DNA of 64,000 bases from Patescibacteria group bacterium (GCA_048499955.1 JASNYX010000002.1:68513-132512), one strand, 5' to 3'. Positions 49,756 to 64,000 are shown, counted from the stretch's first letter. Translations and numbers: made by a program. The notes: generated by a model not told the origin, from the sequence alone.

Positions 49756-50348
49756 AAACCGATAGCAGAACTATTTTCCTGCATACTTTCTAACACAATT
49801 GTAATAAATTCGGGAAGAGGTATTCCTAATCTTGTTTCACATTGCTCGATCTGGCTACGCTCGACTCCTTTTGCAAACGCGGGTTGCTTCCACTTCTTTA
49901 AGATATTTTCCAATTTCACTGAAGTAAGTTTTTTATCGGGCATCACCAAGGCACAAGCGACAATAAAACCGGTGAGTTCATCACAACACTCTAGAGCCCA
50001 TTCCATCTGACTTTGAGGCTCTCTTAAGTTGGTTATTTTGTTATTGTGAGACTGTATCGCTCTGTATAAGTGACTATCTTCAGAAAGGCCTTCGCTTTTC
50101 AGCCATTCTAGTGTCAACAACGTGTGCCTGCTCCAATCATCTTTAGTTAGTTCATAATCGGCATCATGAAGGATTCCTAATATTTCCCATGACTCACGAT
50201 CAGAAGGAGAATCTTCATTTAAATTTCCCTGCATCTGAAAATAATCGTATATGCCACCCAACGCAATACCGACGGCATAACAATGACGACGCAGGTTCTG
50301 GTTTTGCATGTTTTTGTGAAGTATTGTTATTGCGTCTTCTTTATTCAT
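49752..50348 (-). CDS. HD-domain phosphohydrolase, YqeK-like (possible Ap4A hydrolase)
   Basis: 198 aa. H...HD metal-binding pattern (RRHCYAVGIALGG...ILGILHDADYE) and an MNKEDAI... N-terminus like YqeK-family proteins. Confidence 0.5.
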   Translation of the reverse strand: MNKEDAITILHKNMQNQNLRRHCYAVGIALGGIYDYFQMQGNLNEDSPSDRESWEILGILHDADYELTKDDWSRHTLLTLEWLKSEGLSEDSHLYRAIQSHNNKITNLREPQSQMEWALECCDELTGFIVACALVMPDKKLTSVKLENILKKWKQPAFAKGVERSQIEQCETRLGIPLPEFITIVLESMQENSSAIGL

Positions 50349-51066
50349 TGGTTTCAGGTTTCAACAATGGGAACATAACACATTCCTTAATAGGTTTATT
50401 GGCGAGTGTCGAAAAGGTCCTTTCACTCACTCCAAACCCGCAAACAGGTGGCATTCCGTATTCCAGAGCTCTCACAAAATCATGGTCATACATTTGAGCC
50501 TCATCATCACCGCTATCTCTTAGCCTTTGTTGTTCTTCAAATCTTTCTGCTTGGTCAATAGGATCATTCAACTCGCTATAACCATTACCTTGTTCACTAC
50601 CTGCAATGAGAACCTGAAATCGTTCAACTTTTTGCGGCTGCTTAGGATCTCTCTTTGCTAATGGAGAAACCTCAACCGGATGACCCACCAAAAATGCCGG
50701 GCCGGAAATATTCTTTCTAACTTGTTTCCATAGAATATCGGCAATTCGGCCTCTTTCATCATTTTCAGAAAATTCTAGTTTTAATTCTGACGCTTTGTTT
50801 TTTAGTATATCTAAGGAATCGTGTAATATATCTACCCCCAAATCTTTTTTTATGGCTTCAGTGAAATCTATTTTTTCCCATTCCTTGCCTAAATCTACTT
50901 CATGCTCACCAATCGTAAATTTCATTGTTCCAAAAGTTTGGTTTGCTACATATTTGTACATCTCTTCAACCAATTTCATGCCATTCTCATAGTTAGCATA
51001 TGCCCAATAGAATTCCATCTGACTATAGTCTTGGAGATGCTCGAGGCTTTGTCCTTCATTTCTAAA
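50341..51066 (-). CDS. lysS: Lysyl-tRNA synthetase (class II), C-terminal portion downstream of an in-frame TAA
   Basis: In the same frame as the upstream part. Begins FRNEGQSLEHLQDYSQMEFYWAYANYE... (motif 2, FRNEG) and continues through motif 3 (GFGVSERTFSTL). Confidence 0.8.
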   Translation of the reverse strand, partial: FRNEGQSLEHLQDYSQMEFYWAYANYENGMKLVEEMYKYVANQTFGTMKFTIGEHEVDLGKEWEKIDFTEAIKKDLGVDILHDSLDILKNKASELKLEFSENDERGRIADILWKQVRKNISGPAFLVGHPVEVSPLAKRDPKQPQKVERFQVLIAGSEQGNGYSELNDPIDQAERFEEQQRLRDSGDDEAQMYDHDFVRALEYGMPPVCGFGVSERTFSTLANKPIKECVMFPLLKPETNE

Positions 51067-51846
51067 TTACGTCTCCCACGATTTCCAAAGTTTTTCAAAC
51101 CCCGCCAACCATAAGTCTTTTTGCCCAAGCTCACCCATCGAAATACGCAAAAACACATCAATATCTAATGAATTATGATGAGTAACAAATGGACGAGCAT
51201 CAGCTCCTCCGGCAGTATTTTCGAGTACCGGCGTTTCGACTTCCAAAAACCCTTTTTCAAGAAGAAAACTTCGGAAACTATTCCAAAACTTTGCCTTCTT
51301 ATAAAACAGCTCCCTTAATTCAGGATTTAAAATGAAATCAACGTATCTTTGACGATACCTTTCTTCTTCATCTTTAATCCCAAAATGCATACTCGGAAGT
51401 GGTCTGACTGATTTTGTCAGCAACTTTAGCTCATGAACTAAAATTGAGATTTCACCTCTTTTAGTTTTTGTAACCTCACCTGTAACCTCAACAAAATCAC
51501 CAATATCTAAAAGATTTAGCTTTTCAAAGTCTAGCGTTCCTTTTTCCGCATTAAACAACATTCCCTGATCAGCTTTCAAATATAGCTGAATGTGACCTGA
51601 TTCATCTGAAACATCAGCAAAAGCCAGAGCTCCGTGCTCCCTCCAAGATAATATACGACCACACACAGAAACATTTGATCCTTCAAGTTTTTCAAAATTA
51701 TCAACAATCTCCGAAATATCATGTGATCGATTCCCACTTGCTAGATAAGGGTCAATTCCTAATTCGCGAATCTTATTAATTTTTTGAATTCTGATTTGTC
51801 GTAGCTGGTCTAGAGGAAGTTGAGTTGGAGAAATATTCGTATCCAT
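51067..51846 (-). CDS. lysS: Lysyl-tRNA synthetase (class II), N-terminal portion (anticodon-binding OB domain and start of catalytic core), ending at an in-frame TAA at 51067-51069
   Basis: FLEVETPVLENTAGGADARPFVTHHNSLDIDVFLRIS...GFEKL matches the LysRS core. The stop falls one codon before the conserved FRNEG. Confidence 0.8.
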   Translation of the reverse strand: MDTNISPTQLPLDQLRQIRIQKINKIRELGIDPYLASGNRSHDISEIVDNFEKLEGSNVSVCGRILSWREHGALAFADVSDESGHIQLYLKADQGMLFNAEKGTLDFEKLNLLDIGDFVEVTGEVTKTKRGEISILVHELKLLTKSVRPLPSMHFGIKDEEERYRQRYVDFILNPELRELFYKKAKFWNSFRSFLLEKGFLEVETPVLENTAGGADARPFVTHHNSLDIDVFLRISMGELGQKDLWLAGFEKLWKSWET

Positions 51847-53280: not shown

Positions 53281-53760
53281 TCACCTGATTTCCAAAACAC
53301 GATACTCGGAAACGATAATAGGTGTTTTCACAATTACAATATCACCTTTCTTTGCTCCAATGAGAGCTTTACCAACCGGCGATTCATTCGAAATCAGTCG
53401 TTCCGACGGATTTGCTTCTGCACTACCAACAATCTTGAAAGTCTGTTCCTGTCCGTTTACTTTTAAAACCACAACTGAACCAAGCTCAACTGTGTAGTGC
53501 GTTTTAGCCTCTTCGACAACAACTGAGCTCGAAAGAATACTCTCAATCTCAGCAATTCTTCCTTCGATGTAACCTTGTTGTTCCAATGCAGCATCATAAA
53601 CAAGATTTTCCTCTATATTTCCCATGTCGCGGGCTTCCTTGATTTTAGTGGCAATCTCAGTACGCGCAACCTGGCGTAGGTGATCCAATTCCTCTTTAAG
53701 CTTTTTATAGCCTGTTTGAGTTAAATAATTTTGAGTTGTTGCCATTTTATTTAATATCAA
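53281..53760 (-). CDS. GreA-family transcript cleavage factor paralog with an altered acidic tip (GNIEEN)
   Basis: 159 aa with GreA N-terminal coiled-coil and C-terminal FKBP-like domains. The first catalytic acidic residue is replaced (D to N). Confidence 0.7.
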   Translation of the reverse strand: MILNKMATTQNYLTQTGYKKLKEELDHLRQVARTEIATKIKEARDMGNIEENLVYDAALEQQGYIEGRIAEIESILSSSVVVEEAKTHYTVELGSVVVLKVNGQEQTFKIVGSAEANPSERLISNESPVGKALIGAKKGDIVIVKTPIIVSEYRVLEIR

Positions 53761-54220
53761 TAATTTTATATTTTATTACTCCCATAGGAGCATTCACCTC
53801 AATGATTTCTCCTATTTCGCGTCCTAAAAGTGCTTGACCTAACGGAGACTCATGCGAAATTTTACCGGCAAGAGAATCTACCTCCTCGGTACCTACAACG
53901 GAATATTCCACTGTTTGCTTCTGGGACTCAAGTTTGACTTTTGATCCCAATGATACAGCTTTACTACCTCCATTATCAATAGGGGTTTCAGCAACCTGTG
54001 CATTTTTAATAATATCTTCAACTTCAAAAATACGGCCCTGAACCTGCCCCTGCTTTTCACGCATAGCAGTGTACATACCGTTTTCGCTTAAATCACCCAT
54101 AGATCTAGCCTCTTGTAGGTTTCTTAGCACCTCAGGCAATTGCACTGTCTGCAATTCATGGAGTTCTTTCTTTAATTCTTCGTACCCATCACGGGTAAGT
54201 AATATTTTTTGTCCTATCAT
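53747..54220 (-). CDS. greA: Transcription elongation factor GreA
   Basis: 157 aa with the MGDLSENGMY acidic tip motif. C-terminal domain conserved. Confidence 0.8.
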   Translation of the reverse strand: MIGQKILLTRDGYEELKKELHELQTVQLPEVLRNLQEARSMGDLSENGMYTAMREKQGQVQGRIFEVEDIIKNAQVAETPIDNGGSKAVSLGSKVKLESQKQTVEYSVVGTEEVDSLAGKISHESPLGQALLGREIGEIIEVNAPMGVIKYKIIDIK

Positions 54221-54655: not shown

Positions 54656-54730
54656 GGCCCCTTCGTCTATCGATTAGGACACCAGGTTCTCATCCTGGAA
54701 AGATGGGTTTGATTCCCATAGGGGTCACCA
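54656..54730 (+). tRNA. tRNA-Glu(CUC)-like gene, 75 nt, with non-canonical D- and T-loops, overlapping the 3' end of the recombinase gene; probable integration target/attL
   Basis: Hand-folded. Acceptor stem GGCCCCU/AGGGGUC, D-stem GUCU/GGAC, anticodon stem CCAGG/CCUGG with loop UUCUCAU (anticodon CUC), T-stem AUGGG/CCCAU, discriminator A, encoded CCA. The 5' half is near-identical to E. coli tRNA-Glu (GUCCCCUUCGUCUA...AGGACACC). G18G19 and C56 are absent. Confidence 0.5.
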
Positions 54731-56397
54731 TCAGGGACTAAGGCCGCAGCAAACTGCGGTTTTAGTCCTAAATATCGGACTAATTTTGGTGTTCCAGAAA
54801 GCAAATCTTGGTAGGTTGGCGTTTCTTCAAAAAGTAGGCTGAAATACTCTGCCTGCTTGAGTGGATTTTGCCCGTGTAGCAACAATTCTTCGAGGTGTTC
54901 CAGAAAATATCCTACGTTATCCATAACGACATCCATCCGAGTCTCCTTTCCTTGGTCTGACTTTTCTTGTTTGCTGTTTTCAAGTTGAGTGATTTCCTGC
55001 TCAACTTTGATCAAATCTTCCTCCATATATTTAATTGCCACTTCAGAAGACAGATAGCGGATTTTCTCGGCGATAGCTTTGGCGGTCATTCTTAGTTCAG
55101 AGATTTTGGTTTCTATAGTGGTAGTATCTTTTTCCTGCTCATCCTGGCGCTGATTCCACAACTCCATAACGTGCGCTTTGAGCTTCTCGACATATTCTGG
55201 TGTGATATCCAAGTTTTTCACAAAGTTTTCTATGGTCTGATTGAAGTCTTTGTTGGGTACTCGGAAATAGTGGCCACGTTTATTGCAATGGTATGCAGGA
55301 TAGTATTTGCCCAGCTTGCCTCTCGATGCACTGCCAAACAGTGGCTTGCGGCAGTGTGGACATAGAACATGACGTTTGTATGGAAAATCCGGATTTTTGA
55401 CCTGTTTGTTTAACAGCCAAGGTTTTGGCGTTTGTTTCCAAAACCGCACCTCTCCATTTTCTTCAACCAAAACTCTTTTGCCTTTATTTGCCTTGTTGTA
55501 CAACTCTATAGATACCAAGCCTTCAAATTTGCCCTTTACCGGTTGGCCTTCCGTCCATTTTTCGACATTAACACCAGCATAGATAGGATTTTGTATAAAT
55601 CTCCAGAATTGTTTTATTCTGAGTTTGTTGTTACCAATTTCACCGATCACTTTTGTTTTGTCTTTTGAGTCACGTTTGTACATCTTTCTGGTACGGAAAC
55701 CCAATGCATTTACTTCGTCAACGATCTGTTCATCGTTTAATGTCCCTCTAGCACGTAGCTCGAACATTTTGGCAATCCATTCTGATTCTTCTGGATGTGG
55801 CTTTAGGACCACACGTTTACCGTGAGAAGTCTCAATTTTCTCGTTCACATAGCCAAATGGCGGTTGTCTGACTCTAAATCCCAAGCGTACATAGCGGATT
55901 TCAGCACCGATCATGCGGGTCATGATGTCGCGCATCTCGTCTTTAGCCCGCTCAGCTTCGAGTATTTCAGCCTTTTTAGTTGGACTGTAAATGCTCCAGT
56001 CATATTGGATGTTTAGATGTTCTAATGTATTTACTTCTTGGCTGCCGATAATGCCATAGATATCAACCAGTCTGACTCCATATTTAGTAAGTTGCATTTT
56101 CAAATGGTCATACAAATATGATCCGCCGCGAGTAAACCGATCGATGGATTTGATTATGAAAAGCTGCACATCATTTTTAGGATCTTTGCAGTAATCTATG
56201 GCTTCCTGAACAGGTTGCTCTTCTTTGGAAGCTGACTCCATAAAGATAAAGAATTTCTTGATCTTGATGTTGTGTGCTTGGGCAAACCGCTCAATCTGTT
56301 CTTTCTGCGCTTCCGGTGAATCGCCCTGCAAACCCTGCTTTACTGATGAAATTCTGATGGCGGCGACGGCATTTTCCTGAGCAGTTTGGCTATTCAT
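54667..56397 (-). CDS. Large serine recombinase (resolvase-domain integrase)
   Basis: 576 aa. N-terminal resolvase catalytic domain (AVAAIRISSVKQ... with Ser nucleophile context, DRFTRG), recombinase domain, a zinc-ribbon-like Cys pattern (CPHCRK...C) and a C-terminal coiled-coil. Confidence 0.85.
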   Translation of the reverse strand: MNSQTAQENAVAAIRISSVKQGLQGDSPEAQKEQIERFAQAHNIKIKKFFIFMESASKEEQPVQEAIDYCKDPKNDVQLFIIKSIDRFTRGGSYLYDHLKMQLTKYGVRLVDIYGIIGSQEVNTLEHLNIQYDWSIYSPTKKAEILEAERAKDEMRDIMTRMIGAEIRYVRLGFRVRQPPFGYVNEKIETSHGKRVVLKPHPEESEWIAKMFELRARGTLNDEQIVDEVNALGFRTRKMYKRDSKDKTKVIGEIGNNKLRIKQFWRFIQNPIYAGVNVEKWTEGQPVKGKFEGLVSIELYNKANKGKRVLVEENGEVRFWKQTPKPWLLNKQVKNPDFPYKRHVLCPHCRKPLFGSASRGKLGKYYPAYHCNKRGHYFRVPNKDFNQTIENFVKNLDITPEYVEKLKAHVMELWNQRQDEQEKDTTTIETKISELRMTAKAIAEKIRYLSSEVAIKYMEEDLIKVEQEITQLENSKQEKSDQGKETRMDVVMDNVGYFLEHLEELLLHGQNPLKQAEYFSLLFEETPTYQDLLSGTPKLVRYLGLKPQFAAALVPDGDPYGNQTHLSRMRTWCPNR

Positions 56398-56576
56398 ACG
56401 TTTACCTGATGTTTATTGGTAGTTACCCGTACTATTCCGCTTTTCTTGTCTTCTATGATCCGGTCTACTATCAGATGGGCCAGCGTTTTTAGCCATTCTT
56501 CGTTGTGATCAGCACTCGAAGTTTTTGAGGTTTCAGAGGTTGTTGTAATTTGTTTTACCCGATTGTCTTGTCTCAT
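56394..56576 (-). CDS. Small hypothetical protein overlap-coupled upstream of the recombinase (possible directionality factor)
   Basis: About 60 aa. The track ORF starts at a TTG, and the ATG at 56576 is the more likely start. Its stop overlaps the recombinase start (ATGA). Confidence 0.25.
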   Translation of the reverse strand: MRQDNRVKQITTTSETSKTSSADHNEEWLKTLAHLIVDRIIEDKKSGIVRVTTNKHQVNV

Positions 56577-56736
56577 ACCTGCTCTATACAACTATCCATT
56601 ATACGGATAGTATAGACACTTTCAAGCAGAGTGTCAAGGCAAAATATTAACCAATTTGGACTGTTATTTCTTTACTCTTGATGTGTTTTGATATAGACTG
56701 CTTGCTAATCTGCCTCTAGTAAAAAACTAAGGCAAA

Positions 56737-59385
56737 ATGGACGCTCTAAACACTAACCCACTGCTTCAATATCTTAACCCCAGCTTTGATAATTTGTCCT
56801 CTAGATTCCAACTGATTTTGTCGATTTTTCCTTTCAGTGAGATTGTATTCTGGCTAGGTATATTTTTACTCGCGATAGTAGTTTTTAGCGGAGTGCTTTA
56901 TCTCGTCCACAAGTTTGTGCTCGTATATCTCCAGCTAAAGGAAACGTATACATTTCTAGAAGTCACTCCACCCAAAGAAACACTCAAAAGCTCATATACC
57001 ACCCAACAGCTGTTTAATCTATTGCACGGATTGGCTAGACAACGCTCCTGGTGGCAAAGGTTTATTGGAAGTCAAAAAAACTATGCCTTTGAAATAGTAT
57101 CGACCAAGGACGATGGGATCAGGTACTTGCTTCGGGTCAACGAAGAAGATGCGGATCTGATTAAGAAGAGCTTGCTGTCTTATCTCCCAGGTTTAAGCGT
57201 CACTGTTGCTAAGGATTATATGACTGAAAGTTTTGATACTCACAAAAGAGTTATTGCCCAATTTGGACTGGCAAATCACTTTGCATTTCCTCTCAAAAAA
57301 CAGGATGAGTTGGGAGAACACGATCCGATTGCATATATTACCGGCAACATGACCAAGCTTTCAAAGGATGAGCTGGTAGTTTTCCAACTGGTTGCTTCAC
57401 CGGTCAACAAAAGTGCTATTTCTGATATCAGGCGTATCTCTCATCTGATTTATGCTAATAAAGATTTAATTTCCGGTTTAAAGGCAATTAGAGCAGCCGG
57501 TTTATTTGTTGGTATCTTTAAGGGAGTTATTTTTCTTGGCTTTTATGTACTGACTTTGCCGATAGGCATTGTAGTATTTCTGGCTTCTAATGGGCGTGAA
57601 GGTCCGTTATTGCCATTGCCTTTTGGAAATGAACCGGCCAAAACAGCTAATCCGTACCAAGAGGAATTGGAGATTTCAATCAAAGCCAAGCTCGATCAGC
57701 AGCTTTTTGCCACCAGCATCAGGCTATTAGTAGTCGGCAACAACAGGACTGATAACTACAAAAGAGTCCGGGGTTTTGTTTCCTCACTGGCTTCTTTTAG
57801 CAATTCGGCCTATCAGTTCATCAAAAGAGCAAGAGAACTAAAGGTTAATTACTATGAAAGATATAAACAGTTCTGTTTCAGACAACGCCTTCCTGCATTT
57901 TTCACTTCTATCCTGTCCGTTTCAGAAGTGGCTGACCTCTATCATTTTCCTTTCACCAAAACCACTAGAACTGAGGATATTCAAAAAATTCACAGTAAAG
58001 AATTGCCAGCTCCAGTTTCATTAAAAAAAGCTAACGACTTGGATGTAGTCTTTGCCAAAAACACGTATGGCGGCAACACTACTATGATTGGGCTTAACCA
58101 GGAAGAGCGCCGTCGACACATGTATATTCTTGGTGCAACCGGTACGGGTAAGTCCACCATGCTTTTATCCATGATTAACCAGGATTTGCAGAACGGGAAA
58201 GGCCTCTGCGTCATTGATCCGCATGGTGAGCTGATTGATAGCATCTTGCCGCTTATCCCTGAAAACAGAATCAAAGATGTTGTGTATTTCAACCCTGATG
58301 ATATTAGTTATCCCGTTGGATTGAATCTGCTGGAACTGCCAACCGATATCACCGGCGATCCGTTGCTGCGGGAAAAAGAGCTCATTACTGAAAGCATTAT
58401 TTCGCTTTTTCATAAAATCTATGATGATAAGTACTCCGGCCCTAGAATGGAATATATTCTGCGGAACACTATCCATACGGCATTTACTACCGAAAATCCG
58501 ACCTTATTTACGATCTATAAGTTGCTGATAAATGAAGACTTCCGAAAGAAAGTAACAAGCAAGCTGGAAGAAGAAAACCTACATGATTTTTGGAAATATG
58601 AATTTTCCAAAGCCGGTGACTACCAGAAAGTGAAAATGATTTCCCCGATTACTAACAAAATAGGTCGGTTTTTATTCTCGCCAACTGCCAAACGCATCCT
58701 GGAACAGGAAAAATCCACTATTAACTTTGATGACATTATGGATTCCGGCAAAATCCTTCTTTGTAATGTCTCCAAGGGTAAGATCGGGGAAGACAACTCG
58801 CAGGTATTCGGAACATTGGTAATGACCAAGATTCAACTGGCAGCACTCAAACGGGCAAGACAAAAGAGCGATACTAGACGGGACTTTTATCTCTATGTGG
58901 ATGAATTCCAAAACTTTGCCACACCATCATTCGCCCAAATACTCTCTGAAGCCAGAAAGTACCGCCTGAATGCAATCCTGGCTCACCAAACAACTTCTCA
59001 GCTGGAAGACAAGTCACTAGTGCATGTCACACTTGCCAATACTGGTACCGTCATTTGTTTTAGGACTGCCAATCCCGAAGATGAACGGTTGATCCTGCCG
59101 CAATTCATTCCCTATGTCCAGCCGGGTGAAATTGATAATCTGCCCTCATTCCACTTCTATATCAAGATTGCCGCCCTCCGGCCGGAAGAACCATTTTCCG
59201 GGGAAACCATGCCAGTCAAGGTGCCAGACATTCCGGCAATGGTACAACAAATTATTGAGGCTTCGAGAGTTCATTTTGCCAAGGAGTTTGTGGCAACGGC
59301 TTCGACGTTTAAGCCGAAAGCTATTCCCAATAAGCGTGCGTTTAAGACAAAGACGAATAAGAAAAGCGATGTTTTTCCTGACTGA
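56737..59385 (+). CDS. TraD/TraG/VirD4-family type IV coupling protein-like ATPase with a long N-terminal membrane/unknown domain
   Basis: N-terminal TM helices. Walker A ILGATGTGKST, Walker B YLYVDEFQNF, and the conserved ARKYRLNAILAHQTTSQL block characteristic of TraG/TraD/HerA-FtsK-like DNA translocases. Confidence 0.6.
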   Translation: MDALNTNPLLQYLNPSFDNLSSRFQLILSIFPFSEIVFWLGIFLLAIVVFSGVLYLVHKFVLVYLQLKETYTFLEVTPPKETLKSSYTTQQLFNLLHGLARQRSWWQRFIGSQKNYAFEIVSTKDDGIRYLLRVNEEDADLIKKSLLSYLPGLSVTVAKDYMTESFDTHKRVIAQFGLANHFAFPLKKQDELGEHDPIAYITGNMTKLSKDELVVFQLVASPVNKSAISDIRRISHLIYANKDLISGLKAIRAAGLFVGIFKGVIFLGFYVLTLPIGIVVFLASNGREGPLLPLPFGNEPAKTANPYQEELEISIKAKLDQQLFATSIRLLVVGNNRTDNYKRVRGFVSSLASFSNSAYQFIKRARELKVNYYERYKQFCFRQRLPAFFTSILSVSEVADLYHFPFTKTTRTEDIQKIHSKELPAPVSLKKANDLDVVFAKNTYGGNTTMIGLNQEERRRHMYILGATGTGKSTMLLSMINQDLQNGKGLCVIDPHGELIDSILPLIPENRIKDVVYFNPDDISYPVGLNLLELPTDITGDPLLREKELITESIISLFHKIYDDKYSGPRMEYILRNTIHTAFTTENPTLFTIYKLLINEDFRKKVTSKLEEENLHDFWKYEFSKAGDYQKVKMISPITNKIGRFLFSPTAKRILEQEKSTINFDDIMDSGKILLCNVSKGKIGEDNSQVFGTLVMTKIQLAALKRARQKSDTRRDFYLYVDEFQNFATPSFAQILSEARKYRLNAILAHQTTSQLEDKSLVHVTLANTGTVICFRTANPEDERLILPQFIPYVQPGEIDNLPSFHFYIKIAALRPEEPFSGETMPVKVPDIPAMVQQIIEASRVHFAKEFVATASTFKPKAIPNKRAFKTKTNKKSDVFPD

Positions 59386-59487
59386 AAATGTAACAGCCGG
59401 TTGTTACAAAAAATCAATCAATTTTCAGGCTAAGGGAATACCTTTTCTTTACCTCTTTTCCTTTCTTAGAAAGGGAGGAATGAATAT

Positions 59488-60258
59488 ATGACTATATACG
59501 ATCTAACCGACAAACAACTTGAAATACTTCTGCTTATCTATCGGTTCCGTTTCCTTAATAGAAACCATATTCAACAATTCCTCAATCATAAAAATCATAG
59601 TCTTATCATCCGCTACCTAAATCAACTATCAGACTACCAACTCATCAACAAAATCCACTCCACCAAAAGAACAGACATCAACTCACCATCAGTCTATTAT
59701 CTGGCCACCAAAGCCAAGTCACTGCTTAAAGACTATGACAAATGTAACCCTGACCTCCTGGGGAGAGTCTATCGGGAAAAATACCGCTCCGAATCCTTTA
59801 GAAACCATTGTTTACTACTCGCTGACCTCTACTTCCTATTCCAAAAAGCAGCTGAAGAACAAAAAGCCATCTGTCACTTTTACACCGCAACCGATATTTC
59901 CACTGTTGCCTACGCACCACTACCACTGCCGGATGCTTATGTCACAATTAAAGAAAAGAATAAGCACATCAAGCGTTATTTTCTGGATATTTTTAATGAC
60001 GGTATGCCCATGTTTGCCGTGAGGAGGAGAATCAACCAGTACTGCCGCTACTATGCCGGCAATTTCTGGCAGGATCACAATAAAGATCCGTTTCCAAAAG
60101 TTTTTCTAATTTGCCCCACGGTCCGGGTCCAGAAATCACTCCTAAAATTTATCCCGCAAACATTGACGGTCGAAGGCGCCGATATTTCTTTCTTTCTTGG
60201 GTTAAAAGAAGACCTTGTAAAACGGGGAATCCGGCCGGATTCTTGGGAAGCAACCTAA
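59488..60258 (+). CDS. Replication-relaxation family protein
   Basis: N-terminal winged-helix-like LTDKQLEILLLIYRFRFLNRNHIQQFL pattern typical of the Replic_Relax family, found next to coupling proteins on Gram-positive ICEs/plasmids. Strong RBS AGGGAGGAATG. Confidence 0.5.
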   Translation: MTIYDLTDKQLEILLLIYRFRFLNRNHIQQFLNHKNHSLIIRYLNQLSDYQLINKIHSTKRTDINSPSVYYLATKAKSLLKDYDKCNPDLLGRVYREKYRSESFRNHCLLLADLYFLFQKAAEEQKAICHFYTATDISTVAYAPLPLPDAYVTIKEKNKHIKRYFLDIFNDGMPMFAVRRRINQYCRYYAGNFWQDHNKDPFPKVFLICPTVRVQKSLLKFIPQTLTVEGADISFFLGLKEDLVKRGIRPDSWEAT

Positions 60259-60259
60259 A

Positions 60260-60427
60260 CTACTTCCTCTTTTCTTCTTCTGATAGTATCTCGTGCCCAG
60301 CTCGCATAATTTTCTGCACCAGTACCGTTACAACCCCTTGCAAGTCGCTTCGGGTGAACTCGTTCTGGTTGTCGATGAGTTCCATGATTTCATCCTCATA
60401 CTGACTTGTTAGTCTTGGATCAATCAT
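60260..60427 (-). CDS. Unlisted 55-aa ORF (MIDPRLTSQYEDEIMELIDNQNEFTRSDLQGVVTVLVQKIMRAGHEILSEEEKRK) with a near-perfect Shine-Dalgarno sequence
   Basis: Manual translation. AAAGGAGGTGAATAAAT precedes the ATG. It lies downstream of the DUF2958 gene on the same strand. Confidence 0.3.
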   Translation of the reverse strand: MIDPRLTSQYEDEIMELIDNQNEFTRSDLQGVVTVLVQKIMRAGHEILSEEEKRK

Positions 60428-60467
60428 ATTTATTCACCTCCTTTATATTTTACTAAACTCACACTAC

Positions 60468-60488
60468 CGGCCGCGGGGTTATTCCCCG
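60468..60488. terminator. GC-rich hairpin CCGCGGGG-uuauu-CCCCGCGG between convergent/co-directional element genes
   Basis: Perfect 8-bp stem read from the sequence. It overlaps the DUF2958 stop codon region and is followed by UUUAU on the + strand. Possible bidirectional terminator or intercistronic structure. Confidence 0.35.
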
Positions 60489-60802
60489 CGGTTTATCGGT
60501 ATCTCTTGAATATCTTTGAACCTGGTTGGCTTAAAGTGCAGATCTCTTTCTATTCCCAGGCCAAATTTGCCTTTGTAACTTTCCAGCTCCAAAAGTGAAA
60601 AGTAGCCCCATTCATCGTTCCAGTCCCCAAAGATTGAAACGTATCCATAGAATGTTTGATCTTCCGGGTAATACTCGGTGGCATACCAAGTACCCGCACC
60701 GGTAGGATTAAAAAATCTAGCAATGACTAGCGGATCACTGCTTGCTTCTTGCCTTCCGGCTTTCTCAAACTCTTCCAGTAGTTCCTTAGTTAATAGTTTC
60801 AT
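60479..60802 (-). CDS. DUF2958-family protein (common on plasmids/ICEs)
   Basis: 107 aa with the ...FFNPTGAGTWYATEY...YGYVSIFGD...EWGYFSLLELE...GLGIERDLHFKP pattern of DUF2958. Strong RBS AAAGGAGGTGA. Confidence 0.5.
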   Translation of the reverse strand: MKLLTKELLEEFEKAGRQEASSDPLVIARFFNPTGAGTWYATEYYPEDQTFYGYVSIFGDWNDEWGYFSLLELESYKGKFGLGIERDLHFKPTRFKDIQEIPINRGE

Positions 60803-61022
60803 ATAGCTTCACCTCCTTTTTGCATCTTCCTGATAATTTTTGTTTGGGAAGCATGCCCATGCTTCCCATACTTGGAGATTTTTAAGCGGGGTGAAGTTTG
60901 CAAGGGTCACGACCAACGGGAGTGACTTGCGCAGCCCTTGCAAAATGAGGGGCAAGGCCCCTTAATAAAGAAGCTTATTCTGGTCAACTATCGTTTTTGC
61001 GGGTATACTTTATTGGTATCTA
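60803..61022. promoter_or_regulatory. Highly structured intergenic region with nested inverted repeats; candidate oriT / operator region of the element
   Basis: The inverted repeats are GGGAAGCATGcc/CATGCTTCCC (10-bp arms, 60864-60885), TTGCAAGGG...CCCTTGCAA (9-bp arms enclosing GTCAC...GTGAC) and GGGGCaagGCCCC. It lies between the DUF2958 and Xis genes, next to the coupling protein and replication-relaxation genes. Confidence 0.3.
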
Positions 61023-61211
61023 TTGGTAAGTAAACATATGGAAGAACTGCTAACATTAAGTGAGGCAGCCAAAATACTAAAAGTCCATCCTAATACTCTT
61101 AGGTTGTGGGATAAAAGCGGCGTACTTAAAGCCGTTAGAATTGGCGTTAAAAAAGTAAGAAGATACCGAAAACAAGATATTGAAGCATTTATAGACAAGA
61201 AGAATAAATAA
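61023..61211 (+). CDS. xis: Excisionase-family (MerR-like) HTH DNA-binding protein
   Basis: 62 aa. LLTLSEAAKILKVHPNTLRLWDKSGVLKAVRIG...RRYRKQDIEAFI is the canonical excisionase/MerR HTH signature. Confidence 0.6.
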   Translation: MVSKHMEELLTLSEAAKILKVHPNTLRLWDKSGVLKAVRIGVKKVRRYRKQDIEAFIDKKNK

Positions 61212-61214
61212 TTT

Positions 61215-64000
61215 ATGTCTCTTATTGACAATCAAAACCAAACAATGCACCAAGCGCTTATTAACGCGCTTTCAACTGCTGGCAGGATCGACATTCAGGT
61301 TGGGTACTTTTATTTTTCCGGCTTCGAACTTCTCGCAAAACACTTAAAAGACAAACAAGTAAGAATCCTCGTTGGTAAACAAATTGACCCAAATGCCGTT
61401 CCCAATATTATTTCTATGCAGCAGAAAACTGGTAAGCCAGTGGATTTAGAGCGTTTCCAGTCATGGGATACCTTTGTTTCCAGAACAGAACAAAAATCTA
61501 AATACTTCGAAGGATTCTCCAAGCTCTTTAATGAATCTCAAGTATTTGACAGTCCAGAGTCACAAGAGGCATATAAGATTTTTGAAGAAAAAATCATAGA
61601 CGGCTCGTTACAAATTAAACTCACCAACAATGATGAGCACGGAAAAATGTATCTGGTGTACAACAAGCCAGAAATGAATCAAGGTGGTGATTTTCCAGGT
61701 ACGATGTTTTTGGGCTCAAGCAACTTTACATACAACGGACTGATTGACCAAGGAGAGCTCAATAAAACTGATAGAGATAAGGCCAGTTTTGAAGAAGCCA
61801 CAAGTAAATTCGAAGCGATGTGGTCAGAAAGCCAAAACATAGATATTGCCACCCCTGATAATAACCAAGAATTCAAAGAGGTAGTTAAAAAACTTTGGAT
61901 TAACACTGTAGTGAAGCCTTATCTCATGTACATTAGGGTACTACACGAACTCTTTGGTAAAGATCGAAATACGGATATCGAATCTCCAGGCAAAATTACC
62001 GACGACTCATTTATCGACCTCGAATATCAGCTTGATGCTATTCGGATGGGAATTGATCGTATCAATCAATATGGCGGTGTGATTGTTGCTGATGTCGTAG
62101 GGTTAGGTAAAAGTATTATTGCTTCCGCGATTGCCTACAACATCGCTCAAAAAGATCGCATTAACGTGGTAATTATTTGTCCACCCCATCTTATAACCCA
62201 ATGGGAAGAATATCAGGCTCACTTTAGGCTACCTGGAACTAAAATATTCAGCTCAGGAAAAATAGAAGATGCCTACCGTTGGTGTACTGATCAAGTTACC
62301 GGTCCAGTACTGTTGGTGCTGGATGAAGCCCATCGATACCGCAATGAATTGACAGATGACTACACACTCCTCCATTCACTTTCCAGAAGCAATCCAAATA
62401 ACAAAGTTGTCGTTTTAACCGCAACACCTTTTAACAATGACCCAAAAGATGTGTTCGCGTTAGTTAAGCTATTCCAAACCCCCGGACAATCAACAATTCG
62501 ATCAGTGGATAACCTCTCTCTTAGATTTAGGGAGCTTATAGATAGATACAAAAAGCTTCGATCAAGCATGAGGAGAAACAATCTAACTACTGATGAGATA
62601 AATGACGAAGCAAAAGAAATCGCTTTGGAATTGCGACGACTTATTGAGCCCGTCATTGTCCGCAGATCTCGTCTTGATCTGCAAACTATTTCGCGTTATC
62701 GCAATAACCTCATTAAGCAAGGGATCGCGTTTGCAGCAGTTGAGGGGCCAGAACTGCTCGAATACGAGTTGGGTGATTTATTTGACTTATATCTCAACAC
62801 ACTTGAAACTCTTACCAACGAAGATCATGGCTTCATCGGCGCTCGATATAAACCTGTTACCTATATTGCTGATGAAAAACGCGATGAGTTTAAAGAAAAG
62901 TACGGCGCATATTTAGATGATGTAGACCTGCAAACCGCACAAAGCAACTTGGCGTCATTCATGAAGCGTTTACTCGTTATGCGTTTTGAGAGTTCTAAAG
63001 AAGCATTCCGGATCACACTCCAAAATATGATTGACTCCAATCAAATGATCGCTCGTTGGTATCGCGATCAAGGTAGAGTGCCAATTTTGAAAAAAGGCAG
63101 AATTCCAGATCCTGATACATTTATGACTGACGCAGGAGATGATATTACCTCAGAATTGGACGAACAATTTAATGAAGAAAGTGACTCCAAATACAAACTC
63201 CTCTTTGTAGAAAAAGAGTGGCTGAAACCCGAATTTATTAAAGAAGTTGAGTCAGATACACAACTTCTTCTTTCCATCAGGGACCAATGGTTTAACAATA
63301 ACAAAGCGATCATCGATTTGGATCCCAAGCTGGATTCTCTCGTTGAAAATATCAAACGCCTTCTTAGTGAAAACCCCGACAGAAAGATTGTTATTTTTTC
63401 AGCATATGCGGACACGGTTGATTACTTGGGAGATGCGATCAAAAAAGCAGGATTTTCAAGAGTCTATAAATATACTGCTAAAGATGCATCAAAAGCAAAT
63501 CGTGAATTACTTCGCTCCAACTTCGATGCTGGAATAAAGCCTGAATTACAAGCCAACGACTACGATGTGCTTGTTGCCACCGATGCACTTTCGGAAGGGT
63601 ATAACCTCCACCGCGCCGGAGTTATCTTCAATTACGACATACCATTTAACCCGACCCGTGTTATTCAGAGAATTGGTCGTATCAATCGCATTAACAAAAA
63701 AGTTTTTGATAGCATCTTTGTTTACAACTTCTTCCCAACGACGATTGGTGAAGCTGAAACTAGAATTCAACAAATCAGCACTCTGAAAATGACCCTTATC
63801 AATGCAGTAGTTGGTAGTGATACCAAAACGCTTACTAGCGATGAAGAGCTAAAGAGCTTCTTCAAGGACGAGTATGTCAAGGCAAATAAAGAGGTTGAGT
63901 TTGAATCATGGGATGCAAAGCATCGTGAAGCATATGATCAAACTCCTGATGAAGTGATAGATGAGGCTATGAATATTCGTCCAAGAAGCCGTGTTATGCG
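61215..64000 (+). CDS. Large PLD-family (HKD) nuclease + SNF2/Swi2 helicase fusion protein, truncated at the window end; candidate element-borne defence or anti-defence gene
   Basis: Manual translation. No stop codon from the ATG at 61215 to 64000, which is why it is absent from the ORF track. The N-terminal PLD HxK motif is EHGKMYLVYN...GSSNFT. The SNF2 ATPase has motif I VVGLGKSIIA, motif II LVLDEAHRYRN (DEAH), motif III LTATPFNN, and helicase-C motif VI QRIGRINR. Confidence 0.8.
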   Translation, partial: MSLIDNQNQTMHQALINALSTAGRIDIQVGYFYFSGFELLAKHLKDKQVRILVGKQIDPNAVPNIISMQQKTGKPVDLERFQSWDTFVSRTEQKSKYFEGFSKLFNESQVFDSPESQEAYKIFEEKIIDGSLQIKLTNNDEHGKMYLVYNKPEMNQGGDFPGTMFLGSSNFTYNGLIDQGELNKTDRDKASFEEATSKFEAMWSESQNIDIATPDNNQEFKEVVKKLWINTVVKPYLMYIRVLHELFGKDRNTDIESPGKITDDSFIDLEYQLDAIRMGIDRINQYGGVIVADVVGLGKSIIASAIAYNIAQKDRINVVIICPPHLITQWEEYQAHFRLPGTKIFSSGKIEDAYRWCTDQVTGPVLLVLDEAHRYRNELTDDYTLLHSLSRSNPNNKVVVLTATPFNNDPKDVFALVKLFQTPGQSTIRSVDNLSLRFRELIDRYKKLRSSMRRNNLTTDEINDEAKEIALELRRLIEPVIVRRSRLDLQTISRYRNNLIKQGIAFAAVEGPELLEYELGDLFDLYLNTLETLTNEDHGFIGARYKPVTYIADEKRDEFKEKYGAYLDDVDLQTAQSNLASFMKRLLVMRFESSKEAFRITLQNMIDSNQMIARWYRDQGRVPILKKGRIPDPDTFMTDAGDDITSELDEQFNEESDSKYKLLFVEKEWLKPEFIKEVESDTQLLLSIRDQWFNNNKAIIDLDPKLDSLVENIKRLLSENPDRKIVIFSAYADTVDYLGDAIKKAGFSRVYKYTAKDASKANRELLRSNFDAGIKPELQANDYDVLVATDALSEGYNLHRAGVIFNYDIPFNPTRVIQRIGRINRINKKVFDSIFVYNFFPTTIGEAETRIQQISTLKMTLINAVVGSDTKTLTSDEELKSFFKDEYVKANKEVEFESWDAKHREAYDQTPDEVIDEAMNIRPRSRVM

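Follow-up and report, generated by a model that had tools for sequence, protein, structure and literature searches.

A probable integrative and conjugative element of a Patescibacteria group bacterium, with a tRNA-end-targeting serine recombinase gene that integration appears to partition

In the 64-kb stretch of DNA analyzed here (the window; Patescibacteria group bacterium, GCA_048499955.1, JASNYX010000002.1:68513-132512), the open reading frame (ORF) of a recombinase runs into the 3' end of a tRNA-Glu gene, and further genes unlike those of the host follow up to the window edge. What kind of element lies here, where does it end, and why do the recombinase and tRNA genes overlap? We consider it highly likely that positions 54729-64000 represent the left end of an approximately 25-kb integrative, probably conjugative element (integrative and conjugative element, ICE) of a bacterium of the candidate phyla radiation (CPR) near WWE3/Microgenomates. 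The element very probably is an ICE with a tRNA-end-targeting large serine recombinase, the gene of which is partitioned by integration; its boundaries, multiple insertion sites, split ORF and gene content are read directly from the DNA. The window holds its left ~9.3 kb, and L-numbers below denote recovered relative loci. A sequence-only reading of the window had proposed an integrative mobile element inserted at tRNA-Glu and continuing past the window edge, and this was borne out by near-identical copies with base-exact ends at multiple sites. All the genes it had listed, from the recombinase over the tRNA 3' end through to a PLD-SNF2 protein, were recovered as Pfam profile matches.

The only tRNA gene in the 64 kb, on which ARAGORN and Rfam agree (RF00005, 52.1 bits), is a tRNA-Glu(CTC) at 54656-54730 on the plus strand, and it forms the host half (B arm) of attL. 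Comparison of the junction with those of L002, L003, L004 and L006 shows that its terminal CA (54729-54730) is supplied by the element and completes the encoded CCA end. The common core of attL, which is the crossover region, is TCAC (54725-54728), corresponding to acceptor-stem positions 71-72, the discriminator base and the first C of CCA; the same element follows this core at four different tRNAs, with element DNA beginning at 54729 at the latest. When aligned with the recovered loci, copies are 93-97% identical to the window at the nucleotide level from about 54705-54722 rightwards. Their left flanks differ: the window has tRNA-Glu(CTC), L002 and L006 both have tRNA-Ile(TAT), L003 has another tRNA-Glu, and L004 has a fourth tRNA. 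The junction itself is constant and reads TCAC, preceded by G or C and followed by CATCAGGGACTAAGG (the right side is also given as CATCAGGG and as CATCAGGGACTAAGGCCGCAG). The contigs of L003, L004 and L006 start inside the tRNA, a few bases short of the attL junction, as would be the usual assembly break at a repeated mobile element. In the single 90%-identity recombinase cluster that includes the window protein, the C-terminal tails are of at least seven kinds and always part after ...ALVPDG, and therefore at least seven different tRNAs have served as targets for essentially one element.

The right end was mapped by comparing the DNA upstream of a PLD nuclease gene in loci retrieved through PLD homologues. 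In window orientation, attR reads GGGACAGCGGGCTCAC directly followed by host DNA, with the same divergence base in four unrelated flanks (L171/L011, L175, L176 and L178). A 26,235-bp contig of the Joint Genome Institute, which underlies both L003 and L177, begins 33 nt into the tRNA and extends to one base past the core, and so spans one complete element from attL to attR; the element is about 25.4 kb long in L002/L011, and full copies measure 25-28 kb. The sequence common to attL and attR is only 4-8 bp, namely TCAC, or GCTCAC where the tRNA ends in ...GCTCAC, and up to GGCTCACA across three lineages; the crossover dinucleotide presumably lies within this core. The element is real and well bounded, and it was active recently at many sites.

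These coordinates correct one expectation. The sequence-only reading had expected some 20 nt from the 3' portion of the tRNA to recur as a direct repeat at attR and had treated the lack of such a repeat downstream as grounds for refutation. The element end at attR carries only ...GGGCTCAC with the TCAC/GCTCAC core, and the long direct repeat (15-50 bp or more) that is typical of tyrosine-integrase tRNA islands was not found there. No such repeat is to be expected, since the integrase is a serine recombinase with a short att core, and the proposed refutation would have wrongly rejected the element. Within the 64 kb, the tRNA 3' end GATTCCCATAGGGGTCACCA occurs once, and neither a second copy of it nor the attR string is present, because the right end lies beyond the window.

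Base composition tells the same story as the boundaries. The GC content of the element is 41.3% versus 37.2% for the host, where windows of equal size have a standard deviation of 0.63% and a maximum of 38.5%; its tetranucleotide distance from the host profile is 0.211 versus 0.090 ± 0.011 for host windows, and GC at third codon positions (GC3) is 0.38-0.46 versus 0.31-0.38. The composition is clearly unlike that of the host and supports a foreign origin, and the higher GC noticed by eye earlier is thereby put into numbers. The suspicion that the host might belong to the CPR was likewise well founded. Host genes left of the tRNA are housekeeping genes (two GreA paralogues, a class II aminoacyl-tRNA synthetase, SerRS, BacA and SecA), and the closest named homologues of SecA, at 55-60% identity, are from candidate division WWE3 and "Patescibacteria group" bacteria. 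In addition, a degraded copy of the element (L001) lies in GCA_002069875.1, with 92-94% nucleotide identity over the common part and with "Microgenomates group bacterium ADurb.Bin238" as the name of a cluster member. On the grounds of these SecA homologues and this near-identical remnant, the host is taken to be a CPR bacterium.

The overlap between recombinase and tRNA, the cause of which was missed in the sequence-only reading, is explained by the position of attP inside the recombinase gene. The integrated, hybrid form of the gene (54667-56397, minus strand; Pfam Resolvase) encodes 576 aa, of which residues 1-557 are element-encoded. The last 64 nt of the ORF are antisense to tRNA-Glu, and residues 558-576 (DPYGNQTHLSRMRTWCPNR) are read from the antisense tRNA, forming a tail with a predicted local distance difference test score (pLDDT) below 40 in an AlphaFold2 (AF2) model. 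Since attP falls within the 3' part of the ORF, integration detaches the last 47 native codons, which come to lie ~25 kb off at the element's other end, beside the gene for a 146-aa PLD nuclease (PLD146). The reconstructed attP is ...GGGACAGCGGGCTCAC-CATCAGGGACTAAGG..., in its fuller form GGGACAGCGGGCTCACCATCAGGGACTAAGG. When attL and attR are joined in this way, the reading frame is kept through ...ALVPDG-EPAVPQVEPQELFDSLIRTYEKLKELGFTYYNGEVCVIESGEEDNHV, with the stop at the PLD gene start codon, and the recombinase of the circular form is predicted to have 604 aa.

The same arrangement was found in diverged relatives. In L160, the recombinase is 60% identical, the target is tRNA-Lys, and attL and attR share GGCTCACA; here attP is a perfect inverted repeat, CCCCGCTAC-GGCTCACA-GTAGCGGGG, and the joined ORF ends in ...IFDSLILTSHKLIKLGFTYYNGKVAIIESSEEDSSV. 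On a 925-kb contig of a WWE3 metagenome-assembled genome (MAG), MAG_289, 27.9 kb separate the recombinase with tRNA-Glu (L092) from the PLD gene (L184), which has the same orientation, and the joined ORF is again in frame, ending in ...EHLFESLIRTSERLQELGFTYYNGKVTVIETQEEGNNG, a tail homologous to those of the window lineage and L160. The native tail peptide is likewise encoded upstream of the PLD gene in L053, L067, L087 and L152, and L013 carries an unsplit 596-aa recombinase with a homologous tail directly upstream of that gene. With in-frame joins in three diverged lineages and the tail peptide in further loci, the split is regarded as a conserved property of the family; an attP inside the integrase ORF and a gene split by integration, the hallmarks of SSV1-type systems, are thus present in three lineages. 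Recombinases with non-tRNA tails (P0105 and P0068) were considered as possible excised forms, and were set aside as uninformative because their contigs show other neighbours. As a separate observation, the attR flank of L152 (positions 1-135) is an internal fragment of another recombinase gene (...DWSVYSPTKK...RYVRMGYR up to the junction), joined at GTGAGCC, which indicates a nested insertion or a rearrangement at a pseudo-site in a recombinase gene.

From these features a cycle can be proposed. The recombinase would pair attP, inside its own ORF, with a tRNA 3' end and exchange strands within TCAC. The tRNA would be left intact, with the element supplying its last bases and a downstream hairpin, and integration would trade the 47 native codons for a short antisense-tRNA tail at attL. 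Excision would then rebuild the full-length gene. Catalysis by the recombinase and excision are steps that we infer from the gene arrangement, as are relaxase function and conjugation, discussed below.

Whether the split has a meaning of its own is a separate matter. It is quite possible, if somewhat doubtful, that the ORF/tRNA overlap and the split are incidental, attP merely lying near the stop codon, the 47 residues being dispensable and the swap of tails having no regulatory significance. The antisense-tRNA tails differ from one insertion to the next and are predicted to be disordered, and some of the native tail's conservation could be due to its 3' end, which serves at the same time as the Shine-Dalgarno (SD) and start region of the PLD gene. 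Against this, the native tail (LFxSLIxTxxKLxELGFTYYNGKVxVIE) shows about the same conservation as the remaining protein in lineages with an overall identity of only ~60%, and the split has been retained in the whole family of more than 1700 clusters.

The assignment of the integrase to the large serine recombinases is supported by Pfam matches, conserved residues and Foldseek. The window protein matches Resolvase (PF00239) with an E value of 2.8e-09 and 37.6 bits versus a cut-off of 23.3, and no Phage_integrase (tyrosine recombinase) match was found in it by Pfam. Among family members, Resolvase was matched in 30/30, Recombinase (PF07508) in 20/30 and Zn_ribbon_recom (PF13408) in 10/30; the window protein itself has no PF07508 match at E < 0.01, the domain being precomputed for the 95-98% identical P0001 and P0002. 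Residues R15 and S17 (motif IRISSVKQ) and the zinc ligands C346, C349, H370 and C371 are invariant in the family. The AF2 model, with a pLDDT of 75, predicts long helices at 400-448 and 452-482, and in Foldseek it aligned over 510-576 columns with full-length serine integrase complexes (9y66/9dxh, E 1e-15; Bxb1 9iu2, E 4e-12). A catalytic domain with the serine, PF07508, a zinc ribbon with a coiled coil, and a short att core, marks of serine integrases, are thus present.

The family is large and consistently associated with tRNA genes. A total of 1777 homologous protein clusters were found at E <= 1e-20; among the best 120, the native tail motif is never the terminus, and almost every one ends in an antisense-tRNA tail, with peptides typical of antisense tRNA T-arms such as ...GIRTQNQ and ...NRTPV.RMRT.CPNR. 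A genome scan yielded 139 relatives, of which 80 loci were kept, the recombinase C-terminus being alignable in 77. An antisense tRNA abuts or overlaps the recombinase 3' end in 54 of these 77 loci, and most of the remaining loci reach a contig end there. Glu-TTC is the most frequent of the abutting tRNAs (13), followed by Glu-CTC (12), Gln (11), Lys (8) and Arg (4), with Ser, Asn, Asp, Val and Ile as single cases, and sub-lineages use different acceptor ends (GGGGTCAC, GGCTCAC, CAGCCA and GCGCACCA). Record titles in the family are overwhelmingly those of CPR bacteria: Levy-, Shapiro-, Roizman-, Davies- and Collierbacteria, WWE3 (including the complete genome CP006914.1) and Saccharibacteria. 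Among L091-L170, dozens of third-party MAGs with this CPR-type recombinase-tRNA locus are titled "uncultured Gammaproteobacteria/Pseudomonadales bacterium", one Micrarchaeota and one Methanobacterium, alongside Patescibacteria-labelled MAGs; the non-CPR labels likely reflect mislabelling or misbinning.

Beyond integration, the element carries genes for transfer. At 56737-59385 (plus strand), it encodes a type IV coupling protein, a VirD4/TraD-like ATPase of 882 aa with an N-terminal membrane region, which matches Pfam TrwB_AAD_bind, DUF87, TraG-D_C and T4SS-DNA_transf and, partially, NCBIfam SXT_TraD and conju_CD1115. The adjacent gene (59488-60258, plus strand) encodes a Replic_Relax (PF13814) protein (Pfam E 8.9e-12, 45.9 bits versus a cut-off of 25.3), a candidate MOBC-type relaxase, as PF13814 corresponds to MOBC (Coluzzi et al. 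2017, PMC5357655). Homologues of both lie upstream of type IV secretion system (T4SS) genes in at least 14 diverged loci, recovered via a pilin-domain protein. That VirB6-like/pilin-domain protein also led to L011, a locus from a 277-kb contig with the same element as L002, which reaches 10 kb further. To the right of the HKD-SNF2 gene that the window end cuts, L011 encodes a type IIG-like methyltransferase (1059 aa), a Cas4-like PD-(D/E)XK protein and two unknown ORFs, then a TrbC/VirB2-like pilin (108 aa), a T4SS_pilin-domain membrane protein of 405-413 aa (VirB6-like), PrgI/VirB3, a two-gene VirB4 (a TraC-like N-terminal part and a P-loop_TraG ATPase) and an M23 peptidase. A mating-pair-formation T4SS with VirB4 (pilins, PrgI, TraC-like plus P-loop_TraG VirB4, and M23) is thus present in copies 93-100% identical, and of the features expected of an ICE, att sites with independent insertions, a coupling protein and, in relatives, a VirB4 T4SS were found, next to a candidate relaxase. 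Transfer would use the coupling ATPase, the putative MOBC-type Replic_Relax relaxase and the Gram-positive-type T4SS encoded further right, with VirB2-like pilins, the VirB6-like protein, PrgI/VirB3, the split VirB4 and the M23 hydrolase as its predicted parts. As to VirB4 itself, two overlapping genes (~200-aa TraC-like and ~600-aa ATPase) recur in the diverged elements L011 (11922-14322), L178 and L184, and this looks like a conserved split, not a frameshift error.

An alternative is that the element is mobile while its T4SS serves host interaction or uptake, the element spreading by natural transformation or with helper elements. This agrees with the published view of CPR T4SSs as systems without relaxases that have been co-opted (PMC12102498, PMC12857230), the only relaxase candidate here is a divergent Replic_Relax protein, and many copies persist after losing the coupling protein or pilin genes. 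We nevertheless regard it as improbable, since the genes for the coupling ATPase and the MOBC-family protein are neighbours and have been conserved beside the T4SS in the at least 14 related loci, and since the whole transfer set lies inside a discrete element with att sites. Recent insertions of this element at seven or more places in different genomes are what an ICE would be expected to show. In the survey behind the published view, 2,474 virB4 genes of Patescibacteria were accompanied by few relaxases (58 MOBC), integrases and tRNAs are not mentioned, and no att site is reported (Quinonero-Coronel et al. 2025, PMC12102498). The loci described there resemble those found here in VirB4, the TraC/TrsD-like N-terminal gene, PrgI/VirB3, the VirB6-like protein, VirB2-like pilins and an occasional MOBC near t4cp. 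Here, unlike there, the cluster is part of an element with defined ends that was recently mobile and that also encodes a recombinase, a coupling protein and a candidate relaxase.

Several points weigh against the interpretation of the element as a serine-recombinase ICE. The T4SS of the window's own copy is deduced from relatives, its genes lying past 64000. The survey argues that CPR T4SSs are mostly non-conjugative and co-opted (Quinonero-Coronel et al. 2025, PMC12102498), and a review from late 2025 gives the same picture of Patescibacteria T4SSs (PMC12857230). Replic_Relax proteins are also annotated as replication or regulatory proteins (PMC3424549), so that the relaxase role is putative, and no oriT was identified for the element. 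Searches of PDB sequences with the recombinase protein and with a 30-member profile returned no serine recombinase match; the link to this class rests on Pfam and fold, and because PDB sequence searches alone gave nothing the protein is placed on a divergent branch. The search for an excised circle (attP junction) of this lineage had no success, the attP string being absent from IMG/VR, and no empty attB is available, as blastn of the 54 kb of host DNA against all recovered loci revealed no close relative. Finally, decayed copies without the recombinase (L001, L005, L007) or without transfer genes (L091) are common, and many copies are therefore immobile or no longer autonomous.

Two further readings fare much worse than these objections. 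A prophage or phage-like island might be suspected from a serine integrase at a tRNA, from the LexA-like and XRE-type repressors near the right end and from defence cargo that is also found in prophages. This is very improbable, however, as no capsid, terminase, portal or tail domain, nor any other virion or packaging domain, occurs in any ORF of the complete 25-28 kb copies, the large ORFs all belong to transfer, defence or regulation, and scans of IMG/VR with the attP string and with the PLD146 protein gave no match. A vertically inherited, immobile chromosomal island beside the tRNA, to which the recombinase-less remnants fixed at tRNA-Glu in several genomes (L001, L005, L007) might point, has a practically negligible probability in view of near-identical copies with base-exact ends in unrelated flanks at seven or more tRNAs and of a composition strongly unlike that of the host.

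The remnants bear on how the ICE decays. In L001, L005 and L007, the tRNA-Glu sequence runs through ...GGGGTCACCA directly into AACAACTTC, and homology to the window starts at 58980, so that a recurrent deletion of 4.26 kb has removed the recombinase and most (the 5' part) of the coupling-protein gene. The right endpoint is an internal pseudo-att site, GGCTCACCA, in the coupling-protein gene (58980-58988, plus strand), which mimics the attP core. The possibility that these loci are independent short elements was rejected in favour of an in-situ deletion between the attL core and the pseudo-site, because the full-length L003 is inserted at a tRNA-Glu whose 3' portion is identical and because the endpoint falls at GGCTCACCA; the deletion may have been made either by the recombinase or by microhomology. 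In L091, the closest relative from the genome collection (97% recombinase identity), everything from the coupling protein through the VirB6-like gene is gone.

Cargo was compared across otherwise collinear elements. The HTH (helix-turn-helix), HKD-SNF2, methyltransferase and Cas4-like genes form a constant block. By contrast with this constant block, the interval between the M23 and XRE genes is a hot spot of exchange (L011 14955-18149, L177 1071-5995, L184 11059-14365). In L011, M23 is followed by an operon of a type III CBASS (cyclic oligonucleotide-based antiphage signaling system) with a CD-NTase, HORMA, a TRIP13-like AAA protein and a CARF-TM effector, and the right end then holds a LexA-like S24 repressor, an XRE-type HTH protein, an 84-aa ORF and the 146-aa PLD-family nuclease. 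Type III CBASS with a CARF-2TM effector, together with LexA, is shared by L011, L091 and L178; L177 instead carries a Qat-like set of KAP NTPase, QatB and TatD, and L184 an S8 protease with an AAA ATPase.

Within the window, the first gene of this constant block is a 57-aa HTH_17/MerR-type DNA-binding protein (61038-61211, plus strand; Pfam HTH_17 E 5.7e-13), identical in sequence in 47 blocks of the assembly collection. Its description as an Xis-like HTH holds insofar as it scores 31.2 bits against TIGR01764 (excisionase; cut-off 28.8); the protein fits a mad1 defence regulator at least as well (PADLOC mad1 HTH, E 5.7e-12) and stands beside the HKD-SNF2 gene, only 3 nt separating it from that start codon. 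The HKD(PLD)-SNF2 helicase gene (61215-64000, plus strand), cut by the window end and encoding 1101 aa in relatives, matches Pfam PLDc_2, SNF2-rel_dom and Helicase_C, PADLOC "HKD+Snf2" (E 5e-39) and DrmD-like models, and opens a defence or anti-restriction module. Between the Replic_Relax and HTH_17 genes lie two minus-strand genes, both with a strong SD. One, at 60260-60427, is a 55-aa ORF, 89% identical in close copies and 67-69% in L038, L043 and L060, for which no Pfam or NCBIfam match was found; the other, at 60479-60802, encodes a DUF2958 protein (Pfam E 1.1e-19). A repeat search of the intergenic DNA at 60842-60944 found two palindromes, GTTTGGGAAGCATG/CATGCTTCCCATAC (60842-60871) and TTTGCAAGGG/CCCTTGCAAA (60897-60944), which might serve as an oriT or an operator.

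The SD sites of these genes had been taken as a foreign translation-signal signature of the element. The quoted sites are indeed present, with AAAGGAGGTGA before DUF2958 (plus-strand coordinates 60809-60819) and before the 55-aa ORF (60434-60444) and AGGGAGGA before Replic_Relax (59472-59479). Their anti-SD duplex energies range from -11.5 to -13.1 kcal/mol, and the host is nearly free of SD, GGAG or GAGG occurring upstream of 1/46 host genes versus 3/8 element genes in the window (Fisher p = 0.008). The remaining 5/8, and ~17/21 of the downstream element genes checked in the full-length relative L011, lack an SD as host genes do, among them the genes for the recombinase, the coupling protein, the HTH protein and HKD-SNF2 as well as almost every T4SS and cargo gene. 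SD usage is therefore a local feature and not an element-wide foreign signature. A near-perfect SD was seen in only four element genes: DUF2958, the 55-aa ORF, Replic_Relax and PLD146 (in L011, upstream of 20007).

Several small features flank the recombinase gene. An inverted-repeat search located a 16-bp stem-loop, GGGACUAAGGCCGCAG-CAAA-CUGCGGUUUUAGUCC, at 54734-54769 (plus strand), inside the antisense recombinase coding sequence. It begins five bases past the tRNA CCA end and folds with -27.2 kcal/mol (z = -9.1; 0/200 shuffles as stable), and a second, terminator-like hairpin with a T-run follows at 54762-54783. Individually stable hairpins occur at the same place in relatives; their consensus structure over 20 relatives is weak (-0.69 kcal/mol), for which reason a conserved structured RNA downstream of the tRNA is not claimed. 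The stem-loop is a candidate tRNA terminator or processing signal, or part of the P' arm, and the hairpins may terminate the tRNA transcript or assist in its processing, and may reduce antisense read-through towards the recombinase gene.

At the other end of the recombinase gene, overlapping its start codon, lies a small ORF that is conserved across the family (56394-56576, minus strand; 60 aa from its ATG). ORFs of 45-78 aa with a basic N-terminus and the motif EERLKIFANLIVDRI, followed by L or I and then E, occur directly upstream of the recombinase in ~70 related loci. The window ORF had no match in Pfam, NCBIfam or PADLOC; it is a candidate accessory protein or recombination directionality factor (RDF) and, judged by its conservation, a better partner than the HTH_17 protein. 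Neither of these two RDF candidates resembles a known RDF. Upstream of the small ORF-recombinase operon, a consensus scan found two overlapping sigma-70-like promoter matches on the minus strand (56598-56637; TTGACA-17-TATACT and TTGAAA-16-TATAAT, 11/12 each), which serve only as a lead, since the regional total of promoter-like matches is not above that of shuffles.

Some host features were noted in passing. The two tandem GreA/GreB-family paralogues (159 and 157 aa; 53281-54220) lie directly left of the tRNA, and the related context L005 has only one GreA. The class II aminoacyl-tRNA synthetase (tRNA-synt_2 plus OB anticodon domain; 50341-51846) appears as two ORFs, 51067-51846 and 50341-51018, and may represent a pseudogene, a gene that is truly split or the effect of a frameshift. 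In L001 (2928-7100), precomputed Pfam matches place the intein PF14890 in the DNA polymerase III alpha gene of Microgenomates ADurb.Bin238.

The closest known parallels to the element as a whole are found in Firmicutes. Tn5397 with TndX and Tn4451 with TnpX are Firmicutes conjugative transposons with large serine recombinases. ICEs with such recombinases and Gram-positive-type T4SSs have been described, e.g., in streptococci (PMC4701971). The element shares with the Firmicutes serine-recombinase ICEs, whose T4SS is of the MPF-FATA type, a recombinase at one end, att identity of a few bp, a VirD4-like coupling protein, VirB4, a VirB6-like protein, PrgI/VirB3 and a cell-wall hydrolase. Whereas those ICEs target protein genes, the element targets many tRNA 3' ends and has attP inside the recombinase ORF; it further differs in the MOBC/Replic_Relax candidate, the VirB2-like pilins, the CPR hosts and a recombinase too divergent for a PDB sequence match.

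The split itself resembles that of SSV1-type integrases. In these systems, attP lies within the integrase ORF, parts of the gene are found at both element ends, and excision rebuilds the gene. In the element, too, the recombinase ORF spans attP and is split by integration at a tRNA. SSV1-type integrases, the genes of which are partitioned by tRNA-gene integration in archaeal viruses and plasmids (reviewed in PMC8371274), are tyrosine recombinases of archaea, whereas here a serine recombinase of a bacterial host is involved and only the last ~8% is detached, leaving the catalytic and DNA-binding domains intact. The element thus appears to work like an SSV1-type system without being a member, because the catalytic class differs. 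Mycobacteriophages with integration-dependent immunity offer another parallel, having attP inside the repressor gene and a tyrosine integrase. There as here, integration alters the C-terminus of a protein of the element; in the present case, the affected protein is the recombinase itself and not a repressor.

The use of tRNA genes by large serine integrases (S-Int) was stated to have had no earlier report, and 14 S-Int cases were described as unverified (Mageeney et al. 2020, PMC7192596). The small serine recombinases of phiRSM and these S-Int cases share with the element the integration of a serine recombinase at a tRNA gene. The phiRSM-type enzymes are small, resolvase-like proteins of filamentous phages, whereas the recombinases here are large, and tRNA use is the rule in more than 1700 clusters. 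No description of CPR ICEs or of this recombinase family was found in the full-text literature, subscription-only papers lying outside the search.

A wider hypothesis concerns the family as a whole. We tentatively suggest, as something possible if rather unlikely, that its members are self-reporting integrases, with the full-length isoform made only from the excised circle and a tail-swapped isoform in the chromosome that differs in activity or directionality. Combined with relaxed recognition of tRNA 3' ends, this would yield a broad-host ICE, and CPR T4SSs would still be working conjugation systems with a MOBC-type relaxase, at least in Microgenomates/WWE3. If this is true, the full-length recombinase could, for example, be integration-proficient and the hybrid excision-restricted or RDF-dependent.

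Large serine recombinases of this kind form a whole family of more than 1700 clusters at tRNA genes, with sub-lineages tuned to different acceptor ends, in contrast to the earlier account (PMC7192596). They provide a bacterial serine-recombinase analogue of the SSV1 arrangement, which suggests a built-in coupling between integration state and enzyme form, and serine integrases with short, generic, conserved tRNA 3'-end targets and known attP/attB pairs are of practical interest for genome engineering. In reduced genomes, the element also acts as a carrier of exchangeable defence systems (CBASS, Qat, HKD-SNF2/methyltransferase). Much of bacterial diversity belongs to the CPR/Patescibacteria, and their gene exchange is poorly known; the literature treats their T4SSs as repurposed because relaxases and mobile contexts were not seen (PMC12102498, PMC12857230). 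A probable CPR ICE with base-exact ends and recent activity at many sites, in which a recombinase and a coupling protein occur together with a MOBC candidate and a T4SS, makes the question of conjugation in these bacteria directly testable.

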